Positions 35,557 to 63,574 of a DNA stretch of 64,000 nt are shown piece by piece. The translations under genes were made by a program, and so were the position numbers. How positions within the stretch are numbered: the first letter of the stretch is position 1; each line of letters opens with the position of its first letter. The stretch lies in the IMG/VR virus record IMGVR_UViG_3300026088_000011. One strand, given 5' to 3'. The notes below the pieces were generated by a model that saw only the letters and a list, made by a program, of their open reading frames with translations, was not told the DNA's origin and made no database searches. This stretch comes from a virus. Taxonomy: Duplodnaviria > Heunggongvirae > Uroviricota > Caudoviricetes.

Positions 35557-35910
35557 TTATTGTTTCGGTTGAAGATTAAGCCAAGTAATGAATGTTATCA
35601 CATTTTTATAAACTTGTTGAATATTTGTAGATAAGCCAACTCTTCGATAGCTCCATGCTTTCCATCCAGTAGGATCATCCAAATGTTTTGATTCTGGAAA
35701 TTCTTTTTCTTTAGCATCTCCAATTTCGTGGCATTTGATTACTACTGGCATCAGCCAATCCCATGAAGTGTGATATTTTAAATTCTTTTCAAGGATAAAC
35801 CTTGCTTCTGGTGCGCCTGCTTGTGGCATCTTTTTAACTACACTAAACCCCATAAACTCAGCAATCAATTCGTTCTTTGTTTTCATTGTTGTGTTGTTGA
35901 TCTCTTTCAT
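35557..35910 (-). CDS. hypothetical protein
   Basis: 117-aa ORF. Confidence 0.4.
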   Translation of the reverse strand: MKEINNTTMKTKNELIAEFMGFSVVKKMPQAGAPEARFILEKNLKYHTSWDWLMPVVIKCHEIGDAKEKEFPESKHLDDPTGWKAWSYRRVGLSTNIQQVYKNVITFITWLNLQPKQ

Positions 35911-36800
35911 GGGTGAGGGGGTTCAGGTAAAATGTCTTCTACATGTTTCCAAGTTTTTTTTCTAATTATGCGACATATACTATCTATACTTACATTAAAA
36001 GTCCTAGCTATATCTTTAGTTCTTTCTCCTGCAATTTTCATTTGTCTAATTTTACGAATATCGTCCTCTTTTAATTTACAAGAACCTATATCTCTTCCTT
36101 TAGCAGAACTAGATTTAGTTCCCATTTTATAATTATCATAATGAAATAATCTATGACAATTAGAACATAATAAATCACATTTTTCAACTTCCTTTAGTAT
36201 TTTTTCAATAGATTTTCCTGAAATTGCTGTAGAAATGGTAAAATCTTTTAGAGAGGGATCTCTGTGATGTAGATCATAACAAGAAAAATGGTAAGTATTA
36301 TTACATATTTTACACTTATTTCCTTTTATCTCTAGAATCTTAGTCCAAACTTCTATCCTAACTTGTCTATTTAAATGATTTTTACAATATCCTCTAGCGT
36401 CATGAGGCTTATTACACCCTTCAATTTTACAACCTCCTGTATATTTATTAGGTTTTATAGGTAAATTTAAAGGAATCCCTTTTCTTAGTCTACCATAATG
36501 AGTTTTACATAATCCTTTACTTGTCGAATATTTATTACAGTCTTTAACACTACATGGAAATTTAATAATTGATGGATCTGTAGATAATCTTTTATATCTA
36601 TCTGCGGAATAATGAGTTGTACATAATTTTCTAGAATGTTGACATCTATTACATCCTTCTACTATGCATTTTTTATATGTAAAATTTTTTCTAATAGGAA
36701 TAGTCATATCTATCCCTTTCTTATTTCTTAGATAATGAGCTGGACACATTCCTTTAGAATGGGATTTTTCTAAACATCCTTCAATAGTACATATTTTCAT
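35907..36800 (-). CDS. HNH endonuclease with four N-terminal Cys/His zinc-loop repeats and a C-terminal helix-turn-helix
   Basis: Four repeats of C.(I/V)EGC....H..G.C..HY.R..KG, then KCKICN...DLHHRDP...CDLLCSNCHRLFHY (HNH), then ...RTKDIARTFNVSIDSICRIIRKKTW (sigma-70 region-4-like HTH). Confidence 0.6.
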   Translation of the reverse strand: MKICTIEGCLEKSHSKGMCPAHYLRNKKGIDMTIPIRKNFTYKKCIVEGCNRCQHSRKLCTTHYSADRYKRLSTDPSIIKFPCSVKDCNKYSTSKGLCKTHYGRLRKGIPLNLPIKPNKYTGGCKIEGCNKPHDARGYCKNHLNRQVRIEVWTKILEIKGNKCKICNNTYHFSCYDLHHRDPSLKDFTISTAISGKSIEKILKEVEKCDLLCSNCHRLFHYDNYKMGTKSSSAKGRDIGSCKLKEDDIRKIRQMKIAGERTKDIARTFNVSIDSICRIIRKKTWKHVEDILPEPPHP

Positions 36801-36833: not shown

Positions 36834-37460
36834 TTATAGTAATTTACAACGATTTCTCCAGCTATTTATGAAAACCTTTTGACTACTATCTCTTTTTATA
36901 ATATTATTATAAAATATAAGTCTTCTATTATTTAGAGTTTTAAGAAAAATGTGTTTATTAGCGCGATTTATACATAAAATTGTCGAACTATCCATTGTAT
37001 TTTCTATAGGGATTCTGAATCCTAAGTCAGTTAAGCTTCTTCTAATTATACGATTTCCGACTGTTCCATTCACTCTAAAATCAAAGCAGTATGAAGCTAT
37101 ATTTTGGTCATTTAATTCATACCATCCTTCTTTAACCCATAAATCTAAATAAAAATCAAGCACCCAATGGTCTAATTCTTCTATATGAGTATTCCACTCT
37201 ATTTTACCATGTTTTCTTTTATATTCATCTAAGTATTGCCATCCAGCCCAATTTTTACAGTAATTTTTTGTAATTCCGCAATACGTCTCCCCGCCAAAAT
37301 CCAAAGGATGATCACTATAATACCCTTCGTTTTTAAGGATATAATTCAGACAAGTCCTAAAATCAGCCTTCTTTTGCATTTGTTTATCTAATTCTCTCCC
37401 TGGAGAATAGACACTAATACAGCTAAAAAGGATGAGCAATGCTATTATTATACTTTTCAT
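36834..37460 (-). CDS. GH108-type lysozyme-like peptidoglycan hydrolase (probable endolysin) with N-terminal signal or lipoprotein sequence
   Basis: ILKNEGYYSDHPLDFGGETYCGITK matches the GH108 signature (EGGY..D..D.GG.T.YGIT). N-terminus MKSIIIALLILFSCISVY is hydrophobic with an LFSC lipobox-like motif. Confidence 0.55.
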   Translation of the reverse strand: MKSIIIALLILFSCISVYSPGRELDKQMQKKADFRTCLNYILKNEGYYSDHPLDFGGETYCGITKNYCKNWAGWQYLDEYKRKHGKIEWNTHIEELDHWVLDFYLDLWVKEGWYELNDQNIASYCFDFRVNGTVGNRIIRRSLTDLGFRIPIENTMDSSTILCINRANKHIFLKTLNNRRLIFYNNIIKRDSSQKVFINSWRNRCKLL

Positions 37461-37485: not shown

Positions 37486-37530
37486 GGACAAAGGTAGGTA
37501 AAAATCTTGAATTTTGCAAATTTACCTAAT
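37486..37530 (-). terminator. Inverted repeat downstream of 37650-37964 (candidate terminator)
   Basis: TAGGTAAAaatcttgaattttgcaaaTTTACCTA, an 8-bp perfect stem. Confidence 0.3.
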
Positions 37531-52722: not shown

Positions 52723-53103
52723 AATACTTGTTTTTAATTGTGTTTTTGTTTTTTAATTCTCATTTGTTCTTAACCGGGGAGTGATGTCAACTCCCCAAAC
52801 TTGGGAGGGGTGGCTTGGTGGAGGTACACTACTCTCTCTTTAACATAAAAAATTCCTTAAATTTGGAAAATTTTTTATTTTTTCCTTCTCTAAAACACAT
52901 CTCTTCTACTCCAAACTAGATTGATATTCCACCTTTTACAGTCTTATATTTGGAAATGTCAAACCTTTTACATATATTTGTCCCATGTTAAATAATAATT
53001 TACGCCCCTTACAGCATTCACATTCGCTCCCTAGTTATCTAGTGGAGGAGGGGATATTTGTGTTTAATTATAGTTGATTCAGAACAACTTTTTAAAACTT
53101 CAG

Positions 53104-53139: not shown

Positions 53140-53212
53140 CTAGGTGTATATCAATTGGTAGATTACCTGGTTTGGGACCAGGAGGCTGTAGGATCATACC
53201 CTACCATCTAGA
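53140..53212 (+). tRNA. tRNA-Pro (anticodon TGG)
   Basis: Hand-folded. Acceptor CTAGGTG/CATCTAG (one G-U), anticodon stem CCTGG/CCAGG with loop TTTGGGA, T-arm GTAGG-atcatac-CCTAC. Confidence 0.65.
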
Positions 53213-53214
53213 CT

Positions 53215-53285
53215 TTTAATATGGTGTAATGGATGCACATCAGATTTTGAATCTGAGAGTTTGGGATCATGACCCAATATTAAAA
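53215..53285 (+). tRNA. tRNA-Gln (anticodon TTG)
   Basis: Acceptor TTTAATA/TATTAAA, anticodon stem TCAGA/TCTGA with loop TTTTGAA, T-arm TTGGG-atcatga-CCCAA. Confidence 0.55.
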
Positions 53286-53287
53286 CT

Positions 53288-53358
53288 GTGTCTGTAGCTT
53301 AATGTAAAGTCTCACCCTGTGAAGGTGATGGATATGGGGTCGATTCCCATTAGACACC
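53288..53358 (+). tRNA. tRNA-His (anticodon GTG)
   Basis: Acceptor GTGTCTG/TAGACAC, anticodon stem TCACC/GGTGA with loop CTGTGAA, T-arm ATGGG-gtcgatt-CCCAT. Confidence 0.6.
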
Positions 53359-53363
53359 TATTT

Positions 53364-53433
53364 CTTTCTGTAGCTTAAAGAAAAGCGATTGAATACGAAT
53401 CAATCAGATGAGGTTTCGCACCCTCCAGAAAGT
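53364..53433 (+). tRNA. tRNA-Arg (anticodon ACG); T-arm imperfect
   Basis: Acceptor CTTTCTG/CAGAAAG, D-stem GCTT/AAGC, anticodon stem ATTGA/TCAAT with loop ATACGAA. Confidence 0.5.
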
Positions 53434-53437
53434 CTAT

Positions 53438-53517
53438 GCTCCTGTGACATATGCAAAATGGTACAGCTACTAGTTTTAGAAACTAGGTTATTATAGGTTC
53501 GAATCCTATCAGGAGTA
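53438..53517 (+). tRNA. Atypical tRNA, anticodon TAG (Leu by anticodon) but 80 nt with an oversized D region and no long variable arm
   Basis: Acceptor GCTCCTG/CAGGAGT, anticodon stem CTAGT/ACTAG with loop TTTAGAA, canonical T-arm ATAGG-TTCGAAT-CCTAT. Confidence 0.4.
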
Positions 53518-53520
53518 CAT

Positions 53521-53609
53521 GTCCCTATGGTGAAAATGGCAGCACACGTTAGACTTAAAATCTAAAGCGAAGTAATAGTAGCGTGAAGGTTCGAAGCCTT
53601 CTAGGGATA
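53521..53609 (+). tRNA. tRNA-Leu (anticodon TAA), class II with long variable arm
   Basis: Acceptor GTCCCTA/TAGGGAT, anticodon stem TTAGA/TCTAA with loop CTTAAAA, T-arm GAAGG-TTCGAAG-CCTTC, 89 nt. Confidence 0.65.
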
Positions 53610-53613
53610 CATA

Positions 53614-53700
53614 AGGAGGGTATCTGGCTGGATGAAGAGCTTGTCTTGAAAACAAGTAGGTCGGTAATACTGGCTTGTGAGTTCGAGTCTCACATCCTCC
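53614..53700 (+). tRNA. tRNA-Ser (anticodon TGA), class II
   Basis: Acceptor GGAGGGT/ATCCTCC, anticodon stem CTTGT/ACAAG with loop CTTGAAA, T-arm GTGAG-TTCGAGT-CTCAC, 87 nt. Confidence 0.65.
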
Positions 53701-53703
53701 TCA

Positions 53704-53788
53704 TAGAGAGTTGACAGAGTGGCTTATTGTGTTTGTTTGCTAAACAAAAGGGTGTAACAGCTCCAGGAGTTCAAATCTCCTACTCTCT
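53704..53788 (+). tRNA. tRNA-Ser (anticodon GCT), class II
   Basis: Acceptor AGAGAGT/ACTCTCT, anticodon stem TTTGT/ACAAA with loop TTGCTAA, T-arm AGGAG-TTCAAAT-CTCCT, 85 nt. Confidence 0.65.
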
Positions 53789-53793
53789 TCAAA

Positions 53794-53879
53794 ACTGTAA
53801 GTATCCAAATTGGTGAAGGAGACAGACTGTAAATCTGTTGCCACTGGCTAAACTTGTAAGTTCGAATCTTACCTTGCAG
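53794..53879 (+). tRNA. tRNA-Tyr (anticodon GTA), class II
   Basis: Acceptor CTGTAAG/CTTGCAG, anticodon stem ACAGA/TCTGT with loop CTGTAAA, T-arm GTAAG-TTCGAAT-CTTAC, 86 nt. Confidence 0.65.
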
Positions 53880-53990
53880 ACAAAAATAAATTAATAAATA
53901 TTAGGAATTGTAGGTTTTATTTACTACGTTTGTGATATGAAAATAAAGAGTGTTAATAATTCTGAACAAATAGAGACTGAGGAACATATT

Positions 53991-54062
53991 GTTCCTGTCA
54001 TCTAATGGCTAGGATATTACACTTTCAATGTAAAAAAGAGGGGTCGAAACCCTCCAGGAATG
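53991..54062 (+). tRNA. tRNA-Glu (anticodon TTC)
   Basis: Acceptor GTTCCTG/CAGGAAT, anticodon stem TTACA/TGTAA with loop CTTTCAA, T-arm GAGGG-gtcgaaa-CCCTC. Confidence 0.6.
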
Positions 54063-54306
54063 CTAAAAATGAAGAAAGATATTAAGATTAATTTAATAAA
54101 ACTATTAGAAGAAAATGGTGGAAAATTTAGTTTTTTCCCAGAATGGACTTTGATAGGAACAGGTAAAGGTAAATTAACATCTATAAAATAAAGAATTATG
54201 AAAAGGAATTGGTTTAATATTATATTCACCATGTTTGCGACAAGAGATTGTGGCAAGGTGGGAGTATATTGTTGGAGCCAATAAAAGAATATAACACAAG
54301 TTATAA

Positions 54307-54337
54307 TTAAGGCTCCCCAAAAAGGAGCCTTTTTTAT
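54307..54337 (+). terminator. Rho-independent terminator inside the tRNA array
   Basis: AAGGCTCCccaaaaaGGAGCCTTTTTTATTT. Confidence 0.55.
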
Positions 54338-54341
54338 TTAT

Positions 54342-54415
54342 GGGGGATCATGTACCAAGGCTGGCGAGATTGCTTTGCAAGCAGACTGAGTAGGATTCGA
54401 TTTCCTAATTCTCCA
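54342..54415 (+). tRNA. Probable tRNA-Ala (anticodon TGC); D-arm unresolved
   Basis: Acceptor GGGGGAT/ATTCTCC with a G3-U70 wobble (the Ala identity element), anticodon loop TTTGCAA on a 4-bp stem, T-arm TAGGA-TTCGATT-TCCTA. Confidence 0.4.
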
Positions 54416-54421
54416 CATAAT

Positions 54422-54494
54422 AGTTCTGAGGTCAAATGGTTAAGATGTCCCACTGTCTATGGGTACGGAGAGGGTTCAAATCCCTTCAGAACTG
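54422..54494 (+). tRNA. tRNA-Asp (anticodon GTC)
   Basis: Acceptor AGTTCTG/CAGAACT, anticodon stem (T)CCCA/TGGG(T) with loop CTGTCTA, T-arm GAGGG-TTCAAAT-CCCTT. Confidence 0.6.
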
Positions 54495-54497
54495 CAA

Positions 54498-54568
54498 GGG
54501 TTGTTAGTACAATGGTAGTACGAGTGACTGTTAATCACTGAATGGTAGTTCGATTCTATCACTTCCCT
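54498..54568 (+). tRNA. tRNA-Asn (anticodon GTT); two U-U mismatches in the acceptor stem
   Basis: D-stem GTAC/GTAC, anticodon stem AGTGA/TCACT with loop CTGTTAA, T-arm GGTAG-TTCGATT-CTATC. Confidence 0.55.
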
Positions 54569-54574
54569 CAATAC

Positions 54575-54644
54575 ACACTTCAGGCTATGGTAGCCAAGGA
54601 GTCTCCAAAACTTCAGGACATCAGTTCGATTCTGTGGAGGTGTG
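54575..54644 (+). tRNA. Probable tRNA-Trp (anticodon CCA); short D-arm, weak T-stem
   Basis: Acceptor ACACTTC/GAGGTGT, anticodon stem GGAGT/ACTTC with loop CTCCAAA. Confidence 0.4.
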
Positions 54645-54650
54645 CAATAT

Positions 54651-54724
54651 TCCCTACGTAGCTCAACAGGTGGAGCAATAGTTTTGTAAACTGGAGGCTG
54701 TCAGTTCAAATCTGACCTAGGGAT
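54651..54724 (+). tRNA. Probable tRNA-Thr (anticodon TGT)
   Basis: Acceptor TCCCTAC/CTAGGGA (6 bp), D-stem GCTC/GAGC, anticodon loop TTTGTAA, T-arm GTCAG-TTCAAAT-CTGAC. Confidence 0.5.
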
Positions 54725-54760
54725 CATGGTGATAGTACGAAGATATAGGTTATTCTAATA

Positions 54761-54832
54761 AACTCCTGTAGTTTAAATGGAAAAACTATGCTCTTCTAAA
54801 GCATCATTCAGAGTTCGAATCTCTGTAGGAGT
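54761..54832 (+). tRNA. tRNA-Arg (anticodon TCT)
   Basis: Acceptor ACTCCTG/TAGGAGT, D-stem GTTT/AAAC, anticodon stem ATGCT/AGCAT with loop CTTCTAA, T-arm CAGAG-TTCGAAT-CTCTG. Confidence 0.65.
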
Positions 54833-54837
54833 TCATA

Positions 54838-54914
54838 TTGAGATGTATCCTCTCACGCTTATATCGTGTAGAAAAGGTAATTGGTCACATAAGGGTTCGA
54901 CCCCCTTCATCTCT
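54838..54914 (+). tRNA. tRNA-like element of uncertain fold (possible pseudo-tRNA; an internal stem-loop CACG-CTTATAT-CGTG would give anticodon TAT)
   Basis: Acceptor TGAGATG/CATCTCT (6 bp) and a good T-arm AAGGG-TTCGACC-CCCTT, but no canonical D or anticodon arm placement. Confidence 0.25.
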
Positions 54915-54964
54915 ACAAATTTTATTAATATGGAAACAGATAAAAAAGACTATGAGAAGATTTA

Positions 54965-55037
54965 TTCTCTCATAGCTCAATGGTAGAGCTGGAAGCTTTT
55001 AACTTTCAGATCATGGTTCGATTCCATGTGGGAGAAC
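54965..55037 (+). tRNA. tRNA-Lys (anticodon TTT)
   Basis: Acceptor TCTCTCA/TGGGAGA, D-stem GCTC/GAGC, anticodon stem GGAAG/CTTTC with loop CTTTTAA, T-arm CATGG-TTCGATT-CCATG. Confidence 0.7.
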
Positions 55038-55041
55038 ATAT

Positions 55042-55114
55042 AGTAACTTAGCTTAGATGGGAAAGCATCTGACTGATATTCAGAAGAGAACAGGATCGTT
55101 ACCTGTAGTTACTA
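55042..55114 (+). tRNA. tRNA-Ile (anticodon GAT)
   Basis: Acceptor AGTAACT/AGTTACT, D-stem GCTT/AAGC, anticodon stem TCTGA/TCAGA with loop CTGATAT, T-arm ACAGG-atcgtta-CCTGT. Confidence 0.65.
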
Positions 55115-55172
55115 CTTAAAATAAATATCATAAATCATTTGGAATTTATGATACTTCTTATTAAATTTGTAA

Positions 55173-55559
55173 ATGCCTATTAAAGACAAAGAAATAAGAA
55201 AAATAAAAAGCAGAGAATACCAAAAGAAACATTACGAAAGTAAGAAATGGTATTATAAGCAAAAAACAAAAGACAGAAAGAAGAACATATTAGATATGCT
55301 TTCTGAATTAAAACAAACTTTAAAATGTAAAAGTTGTGGAGAAGATCATCCTAGATGTTTAGATTTCCATCATAGAAATCCGAATGATAAGAAAATATCT
55401 ATCGCAAGAGTTGCAAATCAAGGATGGAGTTTAGAAAAAATAAAAGAAGAAATAAATAAATGTGATGTTTTATGCTCTAATTGTCATAGAAAATTACACT
55501 ATGAAGAAAATAATGTGGGTAGGGCTAGTGCCCCAGTGAGTCTCATAAGCTCACCTTGA
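55173..55559 (+). CDS. HNH endonuclease embedded in the tRNA array; 3' end overlaps the next tRNA
   Basis: CKSCGEDHPRCLDFHHRNPNDKKISIARV...CDVLCSNCHRKLHY, closely parallel to the HNH module of 35907-36800. Confidence 0.65.
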   Translation: MPIKDKEIRKIKSREYQKKHYESKKWYYKQKTKDRKKNILDMLSELKQTLKCKSCGEDHPRCLDFHHRNPNDKKISIARVANQGWSLEKIKEEINKCDVLCSNCHRKLHYEENNVGRASAPVSLISSP

Positions 55560-55581
55560 CAGGAGCGTAACCTGTACCCGC
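55512..55581 (+). tRNA. tRNA-Met (anticodon CAT; initiator/elongator/Ile2 not distinguishable); short D-arm
   Basis: Acceptor TGTGGGT/ACCCGCA, anticodon stem TGAGT/GCTCA with loop CTCATAA, T-arm ACAGG-agcgtaa-CCTGT (same T-stem as the tRNA-Ile). Confidence 0.5.
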
Positions 55582-55588
55582 AACAAAA

Positions 55589-55663
55589 GGAACATGAGCT
55601 AGTCTGGTGATTCAGCGTGCGCCTGAAGAGCGCAAGAATATGGTTCAATTCCATAATGTTCCA
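55589..55663 (+). tRNA. tRNA-Phe (anticodon GAA)
   Basis: Acceptor GGAACAT/ATGTTCC, anticodon stem TGCGC/GCGCA with loop CTGAAGA, T-arm TATGG-TTCAATT-CCATA. Confidence 0.65.
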
Positions 55664-55716
55664 CTGTATGGGAAGTTGACTAGTGTATAAAAAGGAAACT
55701 AGAGTCATAGTTAAAC

Positions 55717-55777
55717 TTAAAGGCTTGGCGGTAATTAGCTGTTATACATAGTTCGTCCTAACTAAAACCGCCTCCAT
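55717..55777 (+). ncRNA. tRNA-like fragment / structured element with an encoded CCA
   Basis: GGCGG ... stem TAGTT-cgtcct-AACTA ... AACCGCC-T-CCA; too short (about 55-60 nt) for a full tRNA. Confidence 0.2.
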
Positions 55778-55850
55778 ACTTCAGTAGCTCAGAGATAGCA
55801 GCAACTCCCTTACATGGAGAAGGTCAATGGTTTGATCCCATTCTGAAGTA
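55778..55850 (+). tRNA. tRNA-Val (anticodon TAC)
   Basis: Acceptor ACTTCAG/CTGAAGT, anticodon stem (A)CTCC/GGAG(A) with loop CTTACAT, T-arm AATGG-tttgatc-CCATT. Confidence 0.6.
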
Positions 55851-55854
55851 CAAT

Positions 55855-55926
55855 GCAGAACAGGTGTTGTTGAAGGCACTCCTGACTTCCAATCAGGGTG
55901 GTTGGGTTTGAACCCCAAGTTCTGCA
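55855..55926 (+). tRNA. tRNA-Gly (anticodon TCC)
   Basis: Acceptor GCAGAAC/GTTCTGC, D-stem GTGT/GCAC, anticodon stem CCTGA/TCAGG with loop CTTCCAA, T-arm TTGGG-tttgaac-CCCAA. Confidence 0.65.
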
Positions 55927-55953
55927 CTTTTGTCAAGTGTTTTTGAAAATAAT

Positions 55954-55990
55954 TTCTCCCTGATTACTAGCTAGTTAGGGAGTTTTTATT
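55954..55990 (+). terminator. Rho-independent terminator after tRNA-Gly
   Basis: TTCTCCCTgattactagctagttAGGGAGTTTTTATTTT. Confidence 0.5.
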
Positions 55991-56087
55991 TTAATCCCTA
56001 TTGCTTTATAATTAAATTCGTTATAACTTTGGGGATGGGTGGCAGGGTCTTGGAATATACCCTAGTTAGATATTCCAAATATAAAAC

Positions 56088-56158
56088 ATCAGGATGGTTG
56101 AGTGGTTAAACATAGATCTGCAAAATCTAGTACGTGAGTTCGAACCTCACTCCTGATT
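56088..56158 (+). tRNA. tRNA-Cys (anticodon GCA)
   Basis: Acceptor ATCAGGA/TCCTGAT, D-region GTTgagtggttaaAAC, anticodon stem TAGAT/ATCTA with loop CTGCAAA, T-arm GTGAG-TTCGAAC-CTCAC. Confidence 0.65.
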
Positions 56159-56335
56159 CTAAACCAATAACAATATGGGATATATAATAGGAATAATCTT
56201 CATTTTAGCTCTTTGTGCTCCTGATGATAGATATAAGAAAAAGGAAGAAAAGAAGAATTAAAGGATAATATAGCAATTATTTATAATTATTCTTGTTAGT
56301 TATGATAATTCCTTTTACATTTGTATTAATTACGT

Positions 56336-57953: not shown

Positions 57954-58282
57954 TGGCTAAGAAAGCAAATAACTACATTACTACAGAACTTGATTGGGCT
58001 GAACAACAACTTAAGTCTTGGAAAGCTTATGTAGATGCTAATCCATTACATGAGTTAAAAGATAGAATTGAATGGAAACCTACGAGTAAAGGAGGACTAC
58101 TCCCTATGGTTATTGCCTCAATTGAAGCTCAAGGTAAGTTCATTCAAGACACTATGAAGAACTATCTAGCTTTATTAGAAGTAGTAAATAATCTTAGAGA
58201 AAGAGAAGAAGCAAAGGTGGAAATTAGAGGAAAAGGAGAGCTTTCTGTTATGGCTTCAAATTTCCTTAAAGATAGAAAATGA
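57953..58282 (+). CDS. hypothetical protein; small terminase subunit suspected from position only
   Basis: 109-aa ORF immediately upstream of the putative large terminase, overlapping stop/start. Confidence 0.25.
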   Translation: MAKKANNYITTELDWAEQQLKSWKAYVDANPLHELKDRIEWKPTSKGGLLPMVIASIEAQGKFIQDTMKNYLALLEVVNNLREREEAKVEIRGKGELSVMASNFLKDRK

Positions 58283-60306
58283 CAAACGAAGTAAAATCTA
58301 TAGATTATAAAGATTGGTTTATTAACCAAAAACGTATTCCAGATAAAGGATCTATAGAACATGAGGAGTTCTTTAATTTTCATAAGGAACTATGTTTAAA
58401 TGGATGTATGATAGGAGGGGTTTATTTTAACCCCTTTTTGTATTGGCATTTAAATATATGGCACACAGAAGTAGACATAATTGACTCCAAAGGAAGAATA
58501 TCTCAAAAGTATTCCAACCCCTATCTCAGGGATAATGAATGGATAGTTACAGAAGCTATTGAAAAAGCTCACGAAGAAAAGAAAGGATTGGCAATAGGAG
58601 GGATAAGACGTTTAGCTAAATCAGTAATAGAAGCTTCTTATATAGGATGGGGGGCAACATTTGATGAAAATTCTCAGAATGTTATTTCAGGATTAAATTC
58701 TCCTGATATAAAACTAGTGACAGATAAGATAGACAAGGGTTTAAACTTTATACCTGAAGCTTGGAGGTGGCAGAGAATTGAGGATAATTGGAAGAACCAA
58801 GTAACTCTAGGAGTTAAAACTAAAAGTGGAGAAAGAATCCCCTTCTCAGCTATCCTTATAAGGAACTTAGATGAGGGTAATAATGAAGAAGCTATTGCTG
58901 GTACAAAGCCTAGGAAACTAATTATAGATGAAGGAGGAAAAGGTAGTTTCCTAAGAGGTTTACAAGCTGCTATTCCAGGATTTACTACACCTTATGGATG
59001 GGGATGTTCTCCTATAGTAACGTTCACAGGTGGAGATATGACTAAATTTGCAGATGCTAAACTCCTAATGTTTGATGTAGAAGCATTTAACTTCCTATCT
59101 TATAATAATACAGAAGATACTAAAAGAGTACATGGACTATTCTTAGGTCACAAATATAGAATGGAGGCTAAACGACCTTCTAATCTAGCTGACTATTTAC
59201 AAATTGATTCTCCAGAACTTAAGAAAATAGAGATGTTAGTTAGTGATGAGGAGATAGCTAACAAAATAACAGATGATAATCTAGCTAGATCTAAGAAAGC
59301 AGGAGACAGAATAGCATATCTTAAGGAAAAAATGTACTATCCTAAAACAGTGGATGATATATTCCTTAATGAGAATACCAATATATTTGATATAGAAGCT
59401 GCTAGAAGACAAAAAGCAAGGCTCCTATCAAGAGGATTCACAGGAACCCCTGTAATTTTACATATGGGAGAAAATGGTATATATCATGAATTCACAGACA
59501 AAAGACCTATAACTAATTTTCCACTAAAATCTACAGATGACAAAGATGCTCCAGTAGTAATTATAGAATTTCCAATGACTAACCCTCCCTATGGATTATA
59601 TACAGGAGGAGGTGACCCATATAGACAAGGTAAGGCTATATACAGTACATCTCTTGGAGCTATATACATATATAAAAGAATGCATAATATTCTTACTGAT
59701 AAATATCAAGAAATGCTTGTAGCATATTATGTAGCTAGACCTGATAAAAAAGAAAAATGGGAGGAGCAAGCTAGACTACTTATTAAATATTACAATGCAA
59801 GAGCCTTAATAGAAAATGATGAGATCTCTTTCATAGATCATATGAAAGCCAAAGGAGATGCTAATTATTTAGAACCTCAACCTCAATGGTTAAGAAGAGT
59901 TATACCAAATACTTCTCAAAATAGAGATTATGGTTTATCAAGATCTTCAGATAAAATAATTGATTTTCTTCATGGAAATCTTAAAAAATATACAGAAGAA
60001 ATAATACATTCTGAAAAAGATGAACATGGTAATACAATAAAAGAAATCACAGGAATGTCTAGAATTCTAGATCCTATGCTTTTAGAAGAAATGATTCAAT
60101 ACAATGAAGATGGTAACTTTGATAGAATTGTAGCAGCAGAACTAGCCATCACTCAAGCAATTGAAATGGACCCTATATACGGAAAAGCAACACAAGAGAA
60201 TGAAAGAGCTAAATCCTTATATCAAGGAAATAAAGCAAAACCAACACTATTTGGGGAAACTCCATCCCTATTCAATAAAAAAAGAACACGTAAATTATTT
60301 GCATAA
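58279..60306 (+). CDS. Putative terminase large subunit
   Basis: 675 aa; Walker-A-like LAIGGIRRLAKSV, Walker-B-like KLIIDEGGK about 110 aa later, acidic residues in the C-terminal half consistent with an RNase-H-like nuclease; directly precedes the putative portal gene. Confidence 0.5.
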   Translation: MTNEVKSIDYKDWFINQKRIPDKGSIEHEEFFNFHKELCLNGCMIGGVYFNPFLYWHLNIWHTEVDIIDSKGRISQKYSNPYLRDNEWIVTEAIEKAHEEKKGLAIGGIRRLAKSVIEASYIGWGATFDENSQNVISGLNSPDIKLVTDKIDKGLNFIPEAWRWQRIEDNWKNQVTLGVKTKSGERIPFSAILIRNLDEGNNEEAIAGTKPRKLIIDEGGKGSFLRGLQAAIPGFTTPYGWGCSPIVTFTGGDMTKFADAKLLMFDVEAFNFLSYNNTEDTKRVHGLFLGHKYRMEAKRPSNLADYLQIDSPELKKIEMLVSDEEIANKITDDNLARSKKAGDRIAYLKEKMYYPKTVDDIFLNENTNIFDIEAARRQKARLLSRGFTGTPVILHMGENGIYHEFTDKRPITNFPLKSTDDKDAPVVIIEFPMTNPPYGLYTGGGDPYRQGKAIYSTSLGAIYIYKRMHNILTDKYQEMLVAYYVARPDKKEKWEEQARLLIKYYNARALIENDEISFIDHMKAKGDANYLEPQPQWLRRVIPNTSQNRDYGLSRSSDKIIDFLHGNLKKYTEEIIHSEKDEHGNTIKEITGMSRILDPMLLEEMIQYNEDGNFDRIVAAELAITQAIEMDPIYGKATQENERAKSLYQGNKAKPTLFGETPSLFNKKRTRKLFA

Positions 60307-62897
60307 TGGCAATTATTAGATATACAAAGGACGCAACAATTAGATATGCCTATCTAAACATCTTTCCTGATCAGTTTAAAACTGAAGAAGAAAAGAAAGA
60401 CGATAGTTGGATAAAGAATACAATGGACTACTTTGCTAATAAGGCATATGTAGAGTACAAGAAAAATAGAGAAACCTTTGTTAAAAACTATGATTTGGTT
60501 AAAGGTATTCTTAGACATGAGGATTTCTATGAAAATCAAGAAGTAAGTTCCTTTACAGAAACCCTAACAAGAGATTTAGACCTACCTGCTTATGTAAAGC
60601 ATTATTCTATTCTAACCACTCCTATAAATGAACTTGTAGGAGAACTTTCTAAAAGACCAGACGGATATAAAGTGAAAGCTTTTGACGATGATAGTAAGGC
60701 TGAAGAGTTAGAATTTAAAACTCAAATACTTCAACAGTTTATCATCTCTCAAGCAAAAGAAAGAATTCAAGCTAATTTAGCTCTTCAAGGAGAAGAGGTT
60801 GATGATGAAGAACTTCAACAAATGACACTAGATGATGTTAAGGATGAGCTGGATAGTTATACTTCAATGGCTGAAAAATGGGGAAATCATGTACTTACCT
60901 GCGCTAAAGCTGATTTCAATGTAAAGGAATTAAGCGAGGATGCTTTTAGAGATATGCAAATTTCTGCTAGAGAATACTATCATATTTACGAAGATAACTC
61001 TAAAACAGGATTTAATATAGAAGTGTTTAATCCCAAGAATGTATGGTATTTAACCACTCCTGATAGAAAATATGTATCAGATCCTTCTGGTAGAACCAGA
61101 GGAGCATATGCTGCTGGAGGAGTACATGTCATGGAAATATCTGAAATTATAGAAACCTTCCCAGATATTACTAAAGATGAAATAGACCACCTTAGATCTT
61201 CTCTTCAAGACTATGGTCTTATTAATGTTAGAGAATCTAATTTAGGAGCAGATGTTACTCCAGGTATAGATAGTATAAAGTATGACACCTTTGATCCGGC
61301 TATTCTTCAAGAAAGAATGATGATAGAGGGAGAAATGAAGGAAAATAATGATAGTTTAAAGGATTTTCTAGGCCTTACTTCTAATGTTTCTTCATTTGGT
61401 TATAAGTATGTAGTGGTTAGAGCTTATTGGTTGTCTAAAAGGAAGATAGGAAAGGTGGTGTATGAGGACGAATTAGGTAATGAACAATCTATCCTTGTAG
61501 ATGAAAATTATAAGAAGGGTACCATTCCTACAGAGATTTCGGTAGAATGGGGATGGACTAATCAATGGTATCAAGGAGTTAAGATTGGGCCAGATATTTA
61601 TCATATTAAACCTTACAAACTATTAGACTATTGTCCTATTATAGGACTTATTTACGAAGTAAAAAACACTGAAGCTAAGTCTACAGTGGATATGATGAAA
61701 CCTTTCCAGGTAATATACAATGTCTGTATGAATCAGATGTTTGAGCTATTAAAGAAGGAAATAGGTAATGTTGCCTCTGTAAACATTAGAAGAGTTCCTA
61801 GAATTAAAGATGGAGATGCTCAAGATGATATTGATTTGTGGGAACAAGAAGCTAGAACTAGAGGTATAATGTTCGATGACGATAGTCCTGAGAATACTAA
61901 AGCTCCAGTAACTAATACATCTATTGCTAAAAATGTAGACCTCACCAGAACTAATGAAATACAGGCTAGATACAATCTAGCTGTACAAATGAAGAACGAA
62001 TGTTGGGAACTCATAGGAATGTCTAAACAAAGACTTGGTTCTATATCTGCCTCAGAGTCAGCAACAGGAACCCAAGCTGCTATAACACAGTCCTATTCTC
62101 AGACAGAACCTCAATTTGTAGCTCATGAGTATATATTAGGTCAATTATATCAGGCCATTATAGATGGATCTTTATATGTGGAGTCTCAGAAACCACAATC
62201 CACCCTATCTTATATTACTAATAAAGGAGAATCTGCATTTGTACAAGTAAATGGAACAGATTTAAAATCAAGAGACTTAAAGGTATTTCCTACTAACAGA
62301 CCGGAAGACAAGGAAATGTTTAAAGAACTTAGAGGTCTTGCTCACCCCGCTATGCAAAATGGAGCTACATTATATGATATTGTAGAATTATATTCTACAG
62401 ATTCTGTGCGTCAAATGAAGAAAACTTTTAAAACTCTTAAAGAAAGACAAGAAGAGCTTCAGAACCAACAAATGCAACAAAAACAGCAAGAATTGCAACA
62501 AGAACAAGGAATTTCTCAAGCTCAATTACAGCAAGCTAAACAAATGCATGATGAACAAGTTGCTCATGATGATTATCAGAAACAACTGGATAGAGAATCT
62601 AAGGAGAAAATTGCCATCATCCAAGCCACAGGTTTCGGAAAGGTGGAGTCTGAAGATTTGAATCAAAATGAAATACCAGATGTTTTAGAGGCTTCCAGGT
62701 TAGTACATGATCAGGAAAATGCTGTAAGAGACTACAATTTAAAGCTTACGGATATGGCTTCTAAGAACAAGCAGTCTTCTGAAAAGACAGCTTTAGAAAA
62801 GGAGAAGATTAAGGTGGAAAGAGAAAATCAAGCCAATGATTTAGCTATTGCAAAAATAAATGCCAAAAATAGGAAATCTCAAAATAAGAAAAAATAA
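60306..62897 (+). CDS. Putative portal protein
   Basis: 863 aa, immediately downstream of the putative terminase (ATG overlaps its stop), Q/E-rich coiled-coil C-terminus; size and position only, no motif confirmed. Confidence 0.4.
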   Translation: MAIIRYTKDATIRYAYLNIFPDQFKTEEEKKDDSWIKNTMDYFANKAYVEYKKNRETFVKNYDLVKGILRHEDFYENQEVSSFTETLTRDLDLPAYVKHYSILTTPINELVGELSKRPDGYKVKAFDDDSKAEELEFKTQILQQFIISQAKERIQANLALQGEEVDDEELQQMTLDDVKDELDSYTSMAEKWGNHVLTCAKADFNVKELSEDAFRDMQISAREYYHIYEDNSKTGFNIEVFNPKNVWYLTTPDRKYVSDPSGRTRGAYAAGGVHVMEISEIIETFPDITKDEIDHLRSSLQDYGLINVRESNLGADVTPGIDSIKYDTFDPAILQERMMIEGEMKENNDSLKDFLGLTSNVSSFGYKYVVVRAYWLSKRKIGKVVYEDELGNEQSILVDENYKKGTIPTEISVEWGWTNQWYQGVKIGPDIYHIKPYKLLDYCPIIGLIYEVKNTEAKSTVDMMKPFQVIYNVCMNQMFELLKKEIGNVASVNIRRVPRIKDGDAQDDIDLWEQEARTRGIMFDDDSPENTKAPVTNTSIAKNVDLTRTNEIQARYNLAVQMKNECWELIGMSKQRLGSISASESATGTQAAITQSYSQTEPQFVAHEYILGQLYQAIIDGSLYVESQKPQSTLSYITNKGESAFVQVNGTDLKSRDLKVFPTNRPEDKEMFKELRGLAHPAMQNGATLYDIVELYSTDSVRQMKKTFKTLKERQEELQNQQMQQKQQELQQEQGISQAQLQQAKQMHDEQVAHDDYQKQLDRESKEKIAIIQATGFGKVESEDLNQNEIPDVLEASRLVHDQENAVRDYNLKLTDMASKNKQSSEKTALEKEKIKVERENQANDLAIAKINAKNRKSQNKKK

Positions 62898-63574
62898 TGA
62901 GAAAAGGCAAGATATATTGTTTAATTTGTCCCAAAACTGGAAAAATAAGATATATAGGACAAACCAAACAAAAAGGAAATAAGAGATTTCATCAACACAA
63001 GTACCAATGGAGTAGATCTAATGGTCAACTATCTTATGTAAATGCTTGGATAAAAGGATTATATAACGATAATTTATTGCCAATATTTGAAATAATAGAA
63101 GATAATATATCTGAAGAACTATTAAACGAAAAGGAAATAAATTATATAAAATTATTTAAATCATCTGGGGCAATATTAGTAAATATAGAAGCGGGAGGAG
63201 GAACTTATAAAAATTTTACACAAAGAGAGGATTCTAAAATAAAGAGATTAAACACCTTAAAATCTTCAAAAAAGTGGAAAATTAGATCAGAAAGACATTC
63301 TCAAATAATGAAAGATAAACACAAAGATGGAGTTTCTAAGATAGGATTTAAATATTTTTCTAATGAAAAATTAAGAGAAATGAATCAAATATCCTCTATT
63401 TCAAGACAAAAGAAAGTGAAAGGAATTGATTTAAATGGAGAAAGTTTAGAATTTCCTTCTATTAGAGAAGCTGCAAAGTTTTATAATATAAAAGATTCAA
63501 CTCATATAGTTCGAGTACTTAAAGGTAAATCCAAAAGCGGAATGACTCATAATATAAAATTTAGTTATTTATAG
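62897..63574 (+). CDS. GIY-YIG homing endonuclease
   Basis: KIYCLICPKTGKIRYIGQT (GIY...YIG), conserved Arg/His/Glu/Asn downstream (RFHQHK..., E, NIEAGGG). Confidence 0.75.
   Translation: MRKGKIYCLICPKTGKIRYIGQTKQKGNKRFHQHKYQWSRSNGQLSYVNAWIKGLYNDNLLPIFEIIEDNISEELLNEKEINYIKLFKSSGAILVNIEAGGGTYKNFTQREDSKIKRLNTLKSSKKWKIRSERHSQIMKDKHKDGVSKIGFKYFSNEKLREMNQISSISRQKKVKGIDLNGESLEFPSIREAAKFYNIKDSTHIVRVLKGKSKSGMTHNIKFSYL

Follow-up and report, generated by a model that had tools for sequence, protein, structure and literature searches.

The 64,000-nucleotide (nt) stretch of DNA analysed here, referred to in its entirety as the window, comes from the genome of a tailed phage (IMG/VR record IMGVR_UViG_3300026088_000011; Caudoviricetes) and contains an array of tRNA genes in which a small protein-coding gene is embedded (Table 1). 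As the original prediction had it, an open reading frame (ORF) for a 128-amino-acid (aa) HNH protein lies between tRNA-Ile(GAT) and a tRNA-Met that is followed by tRNA-Phe(GAA), the Ile and Phe genes being called by ARAGORN and the HNH gene coming from the ORF list. The ORF has no stop codon of its own ahead of tRNA-Met and runs into that gene, ending in a TGA that straddles the variable region and the first base of the T-stem; the last 14 codons, for residues 115-128, are encoded by the tRNA-Met gene. The overlap had been predicted as well and is indeed there, with its length corrected from about 48 to 46 nt including the stop codon, and with the tRNA-Met gene moved from 55512-55581 to 55514-55583; it takes in the acceptor strand, the D-arm and the whole anticodon arm, that is, two-thirds of the tRNA. 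That the ORF stops inside tRNA-Met is not a sequencing error because two assemblies from different samples (L088 and L089) are 100% identical to the window across the Ile-HNH-Met-Phe segment; furthermore, the exact HNH protein is recorded on five contigs.

Table 1. Features of the HNH locus and related elements of the window
Feature	Coordinates	Strand	Description
HNH endonuclease ORF	55173-55559	+	ATG to TGA, 128 aa; ORF list
Non-canonical tRNA-Met(CAU)	55514-55583	+	first 46 nt inside the HNH ORF
tRNA-Ile(GAT)	55042-55115	+	left neighbour of the insertion; ARAGORN, Rfam 59 bits
tRNA-Phe(GAA)	55589-55664	+	starts 5 nt past the tRNA-Met discriminator, the tight spacing typical of the array; ARAGORN, Rfam
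HNH leader, 57 nt	55116-55172	+	came in with the HNH gene; promoter-like motif and AT-rich inverted repeat
T-arm direct repeat	55090-55107 (ACAGGATCGTTACCTGTA of tRNA-Ile) and 55559-55576 (tRNA-Met T-arm)	+	16/18 nt; brackets the HNH gene
Divergent tract Ile-HNH-Met-Phe-Val-Gly (candidate co-converted or imported segment)	55042-55927	+	55-68% identity to L008 and L090; per-tRNA identity table
Promoter-like motif TTTG-N20-TATATTTG	52949-52980	+	upstream of the first tRNA of the array
Terminator-like hairpin and T-run	55956-55982	+	first such site downstream of the HNH gene
Larger HNH endonuclease paralog	35907-36800	-	297 aa; N-terminal zinc-loop repeats, C-terminal helix-turn-helix

The relatives of this phage by the large terminase subunit (TerL) that carry the array are few, namely L008 (85% TerL identity), L009 (75%) and L090 (85%), and these three genomes and the window have the tRNA genes in a common order (Pro, Gln, His, Arg, Leu, Leu, Ser, Ser, Tyr, Glu, Ala, Asp, Asn, Trp, Thr, Arg, Lys, Ile, Met, Phe, Val, Gly, Cys), with the difference that in L008 and L090 a further tRNA-Met(CAT) stands between Arg(TCT) and Lys. 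In all three relatives, tRNA-Met follows tRNA-Ile at a distance of 5-7 nt with no ORF in between, and the alignment places an insertion of ~395 nt in the window between the 3' end of tRNA-Ile and the AATAT spacer that precedes tRNA-Met. Because the same array exists without the HNH gene in these genomes, the gene is, by this comparison, an insertion in the tRNA array. Another related array, that of L170, has an HNH gene at the very same site, and the insertion is old, predating the split between the phage of the window and L170 and maintained by selection, because the two proteins are only 61% identical and the synonymous divergence is high (dS ~1.4). The alignment with related phages that had been proposed as a check thus shows the gene present in some and absent in others between the same tRNAs; the suggestion that the insertion is recent does not survive it.

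The insertion sits within the longest divergent tract of a mosaic array. Compared with L008, the Ile, Met, Phe, Val and Gly tRNA genes are 55-66% identical; at the borders of the tract, tRNA-Lys is 93% identical to the L008 gene and 90% to that of L090, and tRNA-Cys is 96% and 71% identical, respectively. This pattern is suggestive of a candidate co-converted or imported segment.

The product of the ORF is laid out as two basic N-terminal helices followed by an HNH/zinc core that includes the motifs CKSC (residues 52-55), DFHH (64-67) and CSNCH (101-105), and H109. The CKSC and DFHH ... CSNCHRKLH motifs correspond to the beta-beta-alpha-metal core, with its His general base, Asn and His, and to the CxxC...CxxC zinc site of the HNH domain (PF01844), and all residues that are invariant in an alignment of 24 sequences are present (C52, C55, D64, F65, H66, H67, C101, N103, C104, H105 and H109). 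The ORF is matched by PHROG families of HNH proteins (phrog_3106, E = 4e-28), and the sequence profile of its family matches the HNH domain of McrA (6ghc) with E = 4e-4. The AlphaFold model has an overall predicted local distance difference test (pLDDT) score of 80.8, with residues 113-128 below 50, and contains two strands (E63-67 and E97-101) and a short helix (H102-105) as elements of the core.

The PHROG profiles cover only the middle part of the protein, yet the possibility that the ORF is a truncated piece of a larger HNH enzyme was rejected: it can be considered full-length because its 378 homologs are mostly 107-145 aa long, with the same MPYKDKE start. In the comparison with the L170 homolog, the rates of nonsynonymous and synonymous substitution are dN = 0.28 and dS = 1.44 (dN/dS ~0.2, with the synonymous sites saturated), and the gene is intact and evolves under purifying selection. 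Together with the absence of the gene from L008, L009 and L090, the dN/dS value and the complete set of HNH/zinc residues uphold the earlier notion that a mobile endonuclease has colonized the array. The relationship with the larger HNH protein encoded in the window had been overstated. The HNH core of this paralog is 48% identical to that of the array protein over 71 aa (E = 2e-18), so that, judging by their divergence, the two modules are homologs and no recent copies of each other, rather than close to a duplicate; the motif strings had also been assigned the wrong way round, with CKSCGED, DFHHRNP and CDVLCSNCHRKLHY belonging to the array ORF.

The tRNA-Met into which the ORF runs is itself unusual. 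It consists of a 7-bp acceptor stem (TGTGGGT/ACCCGCA) with the discriminator A at 55583, a 1-nt linker, a D-arm with a 4-bp stem and a 4-nt loop (GGGC-TAGT-GCCC), a 6-bp anticodon stem with the loop CUCAUAA (anticodon CAT at 55544-55546), a 4-nt variable region, and a 5-bp T-stem closed by the loop AGCGUAA. ARAGORN at default settings makes no call at 55514-55583, and the Rfam tRNA model RF00005 has no match to this tRNA-Met at E<=1 over 3.7 kb or at E<=10 over 111 nt, because the D-loop is only 4 nt long and the T-loop has the above sequence. The test of conserved tertiary positions also comes out negative, with no G18/G19 in the D-loop (TAGT) and no U54, U55 or A58 in the T-loop (AGCGTAA), of which only C56 is kept. 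Thus, validation of the predicted tRNA-Met fails with the default tools, whereas several other lines of evidence favour it. The minimum free energy structure is a clean cloverleaf (-29.1 kcal/mol, z = -3.1) with the 7-bp acceptor stem, a 7-nt anticodon loop, U33 and a purine (A37) at position 37; ARAGORN calls a tRNA-Met under relaxed (-ps80) or mitochondrial (-mt) settings; and positional orthologs are found in L170, L090, L008 and L009. L170 and L090 have the same architecture, built from different stem sequences, at the orthologous position, and it recurs in an unrelated phage, L172. In a structure-guided comparison of these three with the window, a small sample of four sequences that includes one HNH-less genome (L090) and one unrelated phage (L172), 86 of the 88 cells are standard pairs and 12 of the 22 pairs show two-sided compensatory changes. 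A covariance model of this short-D-arm tRNA-Met class (R1) run over 95 loci scored above 50 bits for the four training sequences only. Under the relaxed ARAGORN settings, the array has tRNAs for all of the 19 remaining amino acids and no CAU tRNA but this one. Judging by these features, the sequence is a real, conserved, non-canonical tRNA.

The connection of the HNH gene with tRNA genes extends to its homologs. Ten genomic contexts of homologs with at least 50% identity, including the window, were examined. The ORF ends inside tRNA-Met(CAU) in seven (the window, L170, L171, L172, L175, L261 and L263) and 4 nt before tRNA-Met in L259, which makes eight of the ten with tRNA-Met at the 3' end of the ORF; L265 contains only remnants of tRNA-Met and L264 has no tRNA at this place. 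An unannotated homolog that runs into tRNA-Met is present in a cultured phage, nickie, too. The site of the stop codon varies among the relatives, from the D-arm through the region just before the anticodon loop and the TAA of the anticodon loop itself to the variable region, and the C-terminal tails of the homologs ('...LHYEEKMAGGG...', '...VGRAGAPFSLIS') are translated tRNA sequence, the conserved 'AGG' or 'VGR' being the translated acceptor stem. With such variation in the stop position and with residues 113-128 disordered in the AlphaFold model, the tail of the window protein is a by-product of running into the tRNA, dispensable and not a functional domain. More distant phage relatives that have arrays often stop 4-14 nt inside the next tRNA, be it Gly, Arg, Pro or Met.

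Outside the phages, 71 of the 79 loci in bacterial and archaeal assemblies have a tRNA gene within 1.5 kb, with a mean of 1.95 tRNAs per ~3.1 kb; the expected background in cellular genomes is about one tRNA per 25-100 kb. Several layouts recur. In Acidobacteriota, the stop codon is immediately followed by a tRNA-Met gene in convergent orientation; in DPANN archaea, the HNH gene lies between Arg(CCT) and Gly(TCC); in bacteria of the candidate phyla radiation (CPR), Gln(CTG) is found 2-5 nt downstream; and a further layout has tRNA-Trp a short way upstream. This large family of small HNH proteins (~110-130 aa), with 378, 509 and 546 hits in separate homolog searches, is associated with tRNA genes, of which its members are habitually the immediate neighbours.

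Two of the settings of this family deserve a separate description. In ~25 loci of Pyrinomonadaceae and other Acidobacteriota (L267-L346), a small HNH gene converges on an opposite-strand tRNA-Met(CAT), with either 0-80 nt between the stop codon and the tRNA or an overlap of 14-42 nt with the ORF, and many of the metagenome-assembled genomes contain several copies; this looks like a chromosomal, tRNA-linked HNH element. One group of relatives, with L171 (3950-4356), L175 (4335-4740) and L261 (3604-4013), has a full-length GOLLD RNA (RF02032, 315-320 bits) ~0.5-0.9 kb downstream of a NUDIX - HNH - tRNA-Met unit; no GOLLD is present in the window.

With a probability of about 65%, the array ORF is a free-standing gene for an HNH homing endonuclease and entered the array between tRNA-Ile and tRNA-Met. 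Apart from the evidence of insertion and the HNH features, no group I or group II intron match is detected at E<=1, the leader is 57 nt long and a complete tRNA follows the ORF, as befits a homing endonuclease gene that is housed in neither an intron nor an intein. Under this scenario, an ancestor of the ~122-kb phage would have gained the HNH gene, along with a short promoter-bearing leader, at the junction between tRNA-Ile and the spacer, and the function would have been kept since. By analogy with SegB of phage T4, the enzyme would act on those arrays of co-infecting relatives that lack the HNH gene, cutting or nicking them within or close to a tRNA gene, most likely in the tRNA-Met gene around the anticodon loop, and the ensuing repair would copy the HNH gene together with the flanking tRNA genes. 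The RNase P cut at 55513/55514 that is needed for the maturation of tRNA-Met would leave the HNH message without its stop codon and the 14 codons before it, such that each transcript could become either a tRNA or a translatable nuclease mRNA, the two being mutually exclusive, and nuclease levels would stay low. We infer both the target site and the RNase P coupling. The effect on tRNA processing that the original prediction envisaged is accordingly a plausible one, on the model of T4 segB, and an effect on array recombination, likewise plausible, would fit the mosaic tract around the gene.

Several observations weigh against this interpretation. The Pfam HNH model PF01844 gives the ORF 12.9 bits against a threshold of 21.4 (E = 0.13), and in a Foldseek search of the AlphaFold model against the PDB, the matches to HNH domains are non-significant, with the best E value of 0.3. 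An old insertion under purifying selection would also fit a domesticated function. The array contains other divergent patches without an HNH gene, so that the tract around the insertion is not specific evidence for import, and L090 has the same odd type of tRNA-Met without the HNH gene, so that the two are separable. The tRNA-Met lacks G18/G19 and U54/U55, so that its role in translation is a presumed one. Finally, the phage relatives with 37-55% identity are mostly found on contigs devoid of tRNA genes, and in 77 of the 91 IMG/VR loci the end of the ORF has no tRNA; the link to tRNA-Met, when tried for the whole family, was rejected for this reason and holds only for the subclade with at least 50% identity.

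Clues to the target site come from orphan 5' parts of tRNA-Met that several loci have 41-69 nt ahead of the HNH start codon, against a background of ~0.02 per 150 nt. L259 has a complete tRNA-Met 5' half that ends exactly after CTCATAA, recognizable 5' halves with the same end point are found in L265 and L179, L188 retains the 5' two-thirds of the tRNA, and L171 and L175 have shorter 'G[TG]CTCATAA' remnants. Several of these loci come from one phage group, and the sample probably represents only about three independent events. The counterpart in the window (ATATCATAA at 55126-55134) is degenerate and lies within an AT-rich inverted repeat, and was not counted as evidence. The common end point suggests a DNA break, or at least an insertion junction, in the anticodon loop of a resident tRNA-Met gene.

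A more specific proposal, possible albeit doubtful, is that the close subclade is an intron-less invader of tRNA-Met genes that cuts in the anticodon loop, after position 38, and carries a replacement for the 5' part of tRNA-Met or the whole of it. The mobile unit would consist of the promoter, the HNH ORF and the replacement 5' part (or entire tRNA-Met), which would be joined to the ORF end and overlap it; insertion would regenerate an intact tRNA and leave an orphan 5' half upstream, which would then decay. If so, the odd tRNA-Met, with its 4-nt D-loop and A54/U58-type T-loop, would be either a cleavage-resistant variant or one that moves along with the element, and the small-HNH family would be a tRNA-gene-targeting element across domains, in phages, Acidobacteriota, CPR and DPANN.

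Some of the same observations could be explained without homing. The HNH gene might be a domesticated phage gene, either a terminase cofactor of the HK97 gp74 type or a SegB-like amplifier of tRNA genes that counters host defences; this is unlikely. The age of the gene, the purifying selection acting on it and its location 2.7 kb upstream of the TerL gene, which is followed by the portal gene (58279-60306 and 60306-62897, just downstream of the array), would be compatible with such a function, as would the report that SegB amplifies tRNA genes against the Septu defence (PMC13096335). However, the absence of the gene from L008, L009 and L090, which share 75-85% TerL identity with the window, implies that it is not essential for packaging; four tRNA genes (Phe, Val, Gly and Cys) and six small ORFs separate it from TerL; family members adjoin tRNA genes in bacterial and archaeal chromosomes with no terminase nearby; and there is no tandem amplification in the window. 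The terminase-cofactor variant was rejected altogether given that the terminase/portal neighbourhood is not conserved and the gene is missing in those three relatives.

Comparably unlikely is the possibility that the tRNA-Met-like sequence is a dead pseudogene damaged by the landing of the HNH gene, in which case the overlap would be accidental and there would be no functional tRNA. The failure of Rfam and default ARAGORN, the loss of the conserved D-loop and T-loop positions, and the poor scores of several other tRNAs of the array could all be read this way. Such decay is difficult to reconcile with the maintenance of all four stems through compensatory changes across four genomes, including one without HNH and one unrelated, with the status of this gene as the sole CAU tRNA of the array, with its array-typical tight spacing to tRNA-Phe and its U33 and A37, or with the occurrence of similar odd T-loops in other, well-scoring tRNAs of all five related arrays. 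It is extremely improbable that the ORF belongs to a self-splicing group I intron inside a tRNA gene, of the kind found in cyanobacterial tRNA-fMet and tRNA-Leu. Group I introns with HNH genes in tRNA anticodon loops are known (PMC13011429), and the orphan 5' halves ending in the anticodon loop upstream of some homologs are reminiscent of that arrangement, but no Rfam group I family matches the array at E<=1, the non-coding sequence amounts to 57 nt before the ORF and none between the ORF and the tRNA, which leaves no room for a ribozyme core, and the downstream tRNA is complete, with a 5' half of its own.

Endonuclease genes inside tRNA arrays have been documented before, and the free-standing homing endonuclease proposed here is best compared with SegB of phage T4. 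SegB is encoded in a tRNA cluster, recognizes the T-arm motif GGTTCRANTCC and drives the co-inheritance of the flanking tRNA genes; maturation of tRNA-Arg cuts the segB mRNA at the stop codon, which was proposed to limit expression (PMC2330249). The co-localization of segB with tRNA genes is widespread (PMC13096335). The likeness consists in a free-standing endonuclease gene in a phage tRNA cluster that is not found in close relatives, in an ORF end that abuts the next tRNA, so that 5' maturation of the tRNA cuts the mRNA at the stop codon, and, as SegB features, in a target within tRNA genes and the co-inheritance of their neighbours. SegB differs in belonging to the GIY-YIG superfamily rather than being an HNH enzyme, in an overlap limited to the stop codon, compared with 46 nt here, and in having no isotype preference, as opposed to the tie of the close HNH relatives to tRNA-Met; the enzyme of the window is known from sequence alone. 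Among HNH enzymes, F-TflI, F-TflII as well as F-TflIV of phage T5 are encoded between tRNA genes of a lytic phage and were proposed, in 2004 work as cited in PMC2330249, to behave like segB, with tRNA processing keeping their expression low. The T5 enzymes are known nickases with mapped sites, and the likeness to the window HNH is one of description. T5 and T5-like phages do not appear among the 30 tblastn matches listed; there were 183 further records, many of them from enterobacterial phages.

A member of the same family with 48.5% identity (E = 8e-22) is Gp8 of ΦcrAss001 (NC_049977, 5238-5654), which resides in the tRNA array of a Crassvirales-type phage, starting 2 nt after one tRNA and overlapping the next by 14 nt, as can already be seen in the RefSeq annotation. 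It differs in being flanked by tRNA-Gly genes instead of Ile and Met, in having a shorter overlap and in running into a canonical tRNA. HNH genes are also the most widespread protein-coding genes inside the tRNA arrays of mycobacteria and mycobacteriophages, where they were proposed to spread or diversify the arrays (PMC5966550, PMC6409571); these belong to another host phylum, no overlap of ORF and tRNA is described for them, and they are compared here by description only. The closest solved structure by sequence, that of E. coli McrA (6ghc), shares the C-terminal CxxCH...H beta-beta-alpha-metal motif; McrA differs in being a 287-aa restriction enzyme for modified DNA with an N-terminal domain that reads 5-methylcytosine, and only ~22 residues align.

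Against this background, what is less ordinary here is the 46-nt overlap covering two-thirds of a tRNA, the tie between the HNH subclade and tRNA-Met, the odd tRNA-Met class that the detectors miss, and the family-wide adjacency to cellular tRNA genes. In the literature searched, coverage of which was incomplete, none of the latter three was found described. The locus provides an HNH example, from a Crassvirales-like lineage of freshwater or soil phages, for the SegB model, in which phage tRNA arrays undergo reshuffling by homing endonucleases and tRNA processing restrains these enzymes, a model that has gained weight now that phage tRNAs are viewed as counter-defence genes that SegB amplifies (PMC13096335). 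The tRNA-adjoining cellular loci are a ready set for asking whether tRNA genes are a general homing target. There are also consequences for annotation: callers of ORFs and of tRNAs will be in conflict wherever a member of this family ends inside a tRNA, and, with the tRNA-Met and three more tRNAs missed by standard finders, the phage seems to have no Met and Ala tRNAs even though it probably has the full set.

The three additional genes, missed by default ARAGORN but found under its relaxed or mitochondrial settings, are Arg(ACG) at 53364-53434 (Rfam 44.6 bits), a tRNA with the anticodon TAG at 53438-53518 (26.9 bits) and Ala(TGC) at 54345-54416. The second of these has a short variable arm, and ARAGORN reads it as either Leu(TAG) or Ser(ACT). 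In L008 and L009, the positional orthologs of all three are called by ARAGORN at default settings; in L090, a default call for Leu(TAG) is missing. Together with Met, they complete the 20-amino-acid set in the array of the window.

Non-canonical T-loops with A54/T58 instead of the usual T/A and with intact T-stems (for example, ATCGTTA, AGCGTAA, ATCATAC and ATCATGA) occur in several tRNAs of all five related arrays, that is, those of the window (53140-56159), L008, L009, L090 and L170. Carriers include the Pro, Gln, Ile and Met tRNAs of the window, those for Phe and Glu in the relatives, and the other CAU tRNA, and the trait is independent of the HNH gene. In the window, tRNAs with odd T-loops (Ile and Met) lie on both sides of the HNH gene. 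An explanation of these loops as self-immunity to the resident HNH enzyme was rejected: relatives without the HNH gene have them too, in Phe, Glu, His and the other CAU tRNA, and the HNH-linked tRNA-Met genes of L171, L175, L259, L261 and L263 have canonical T-loops, so that there is no correlation. That such loops are an escape from nucleases reading GGTTCRANTCC is speculation. With regard to the T-arm repeat that brackets the HNH gene, the T-arm of tRNA-Ile is canonical in L170, and that of the window may have been converted to the Met-like form.

The second CAU tRNA between Arg(TCT) and Lys, which in L008, L090 and L170 has the T-loop ATCGGTA or ATCAGTA, was sought in the window and rejected. 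The corresponding region (54835-54965) is non-homologous and yields only a weak Ile(TAT)-like call with an unconvincing fold (z = -0.7); should the tRNA of the relatives be a tRNA-Ile2 that reads AUA, it may have been lost or replaced in the window. Directly 5' of tRNA-Lys, there is a conserved motif, ATGGAAACAGATAA(A/G)AAAGACTATGA... (window 54931-54965, L008 1879-1911, L009 4708-4722), which reads as a mini-ORF, METDKKDYEKIYSLIAQW*, running into the tRNA and could be a processing signal, a promoter signal or a small ORF.

The leader of the HNH gene is missing in L008, L009 and L090; it is conserved in L170 and, in part, in L259. It contains a promoter-like motif of the Bacteroidota type, TTTG (55138-55141) followed after 20 nt by TAAATTTG (55162-55169), which ends 3 nt before the ATG, and an AT-rich inverted repeat (55120-55135 / 55144-55159). 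The pattern TTTG-N19-21-TAnnTTTG occurs seven times in the window compared with 1.84 expected, a number reached by 1 of 100 shuffles, and its copies include those upstream of the array, where the motif is likely to be the array promoter, upstream of the HNH gene (55138-55169), and upstream of the gene at 36834-37460 (37489-37520, minus strand). Because of this enrichment of a Bacteroidota-type promoter pattern, the host of the phage is likely to belong to Bacteroidota. The HNH, Met, Phe, Val and Gly genes are probably co-transcribed because there is no terminator-like site between them.

The size of the phage genome, roughly 122 kb, is indicated by a 122,235-bp ENA contig that encodes the exact HNH protein. 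TerL relatives are numerous in metagenomes, with 409 in IMG/VR and at least 562 in the JGI metagenomes; INPHARED contains no near-identical phage genome, and the nearest TerL proteins of cultured phages are those of a Leptolyngbya phage (40% identity), Cellulophaga phages (~32%) and crAss-like phages. In addition to the two HNH genes, the window contains a third endonuclease-like gene, a 225-aa ORF at 62897-63574 on the plus strand, directly 3' of the portal gene, which matches homing endonuclease families of PHROG (phrog_314, E = 2e-8).

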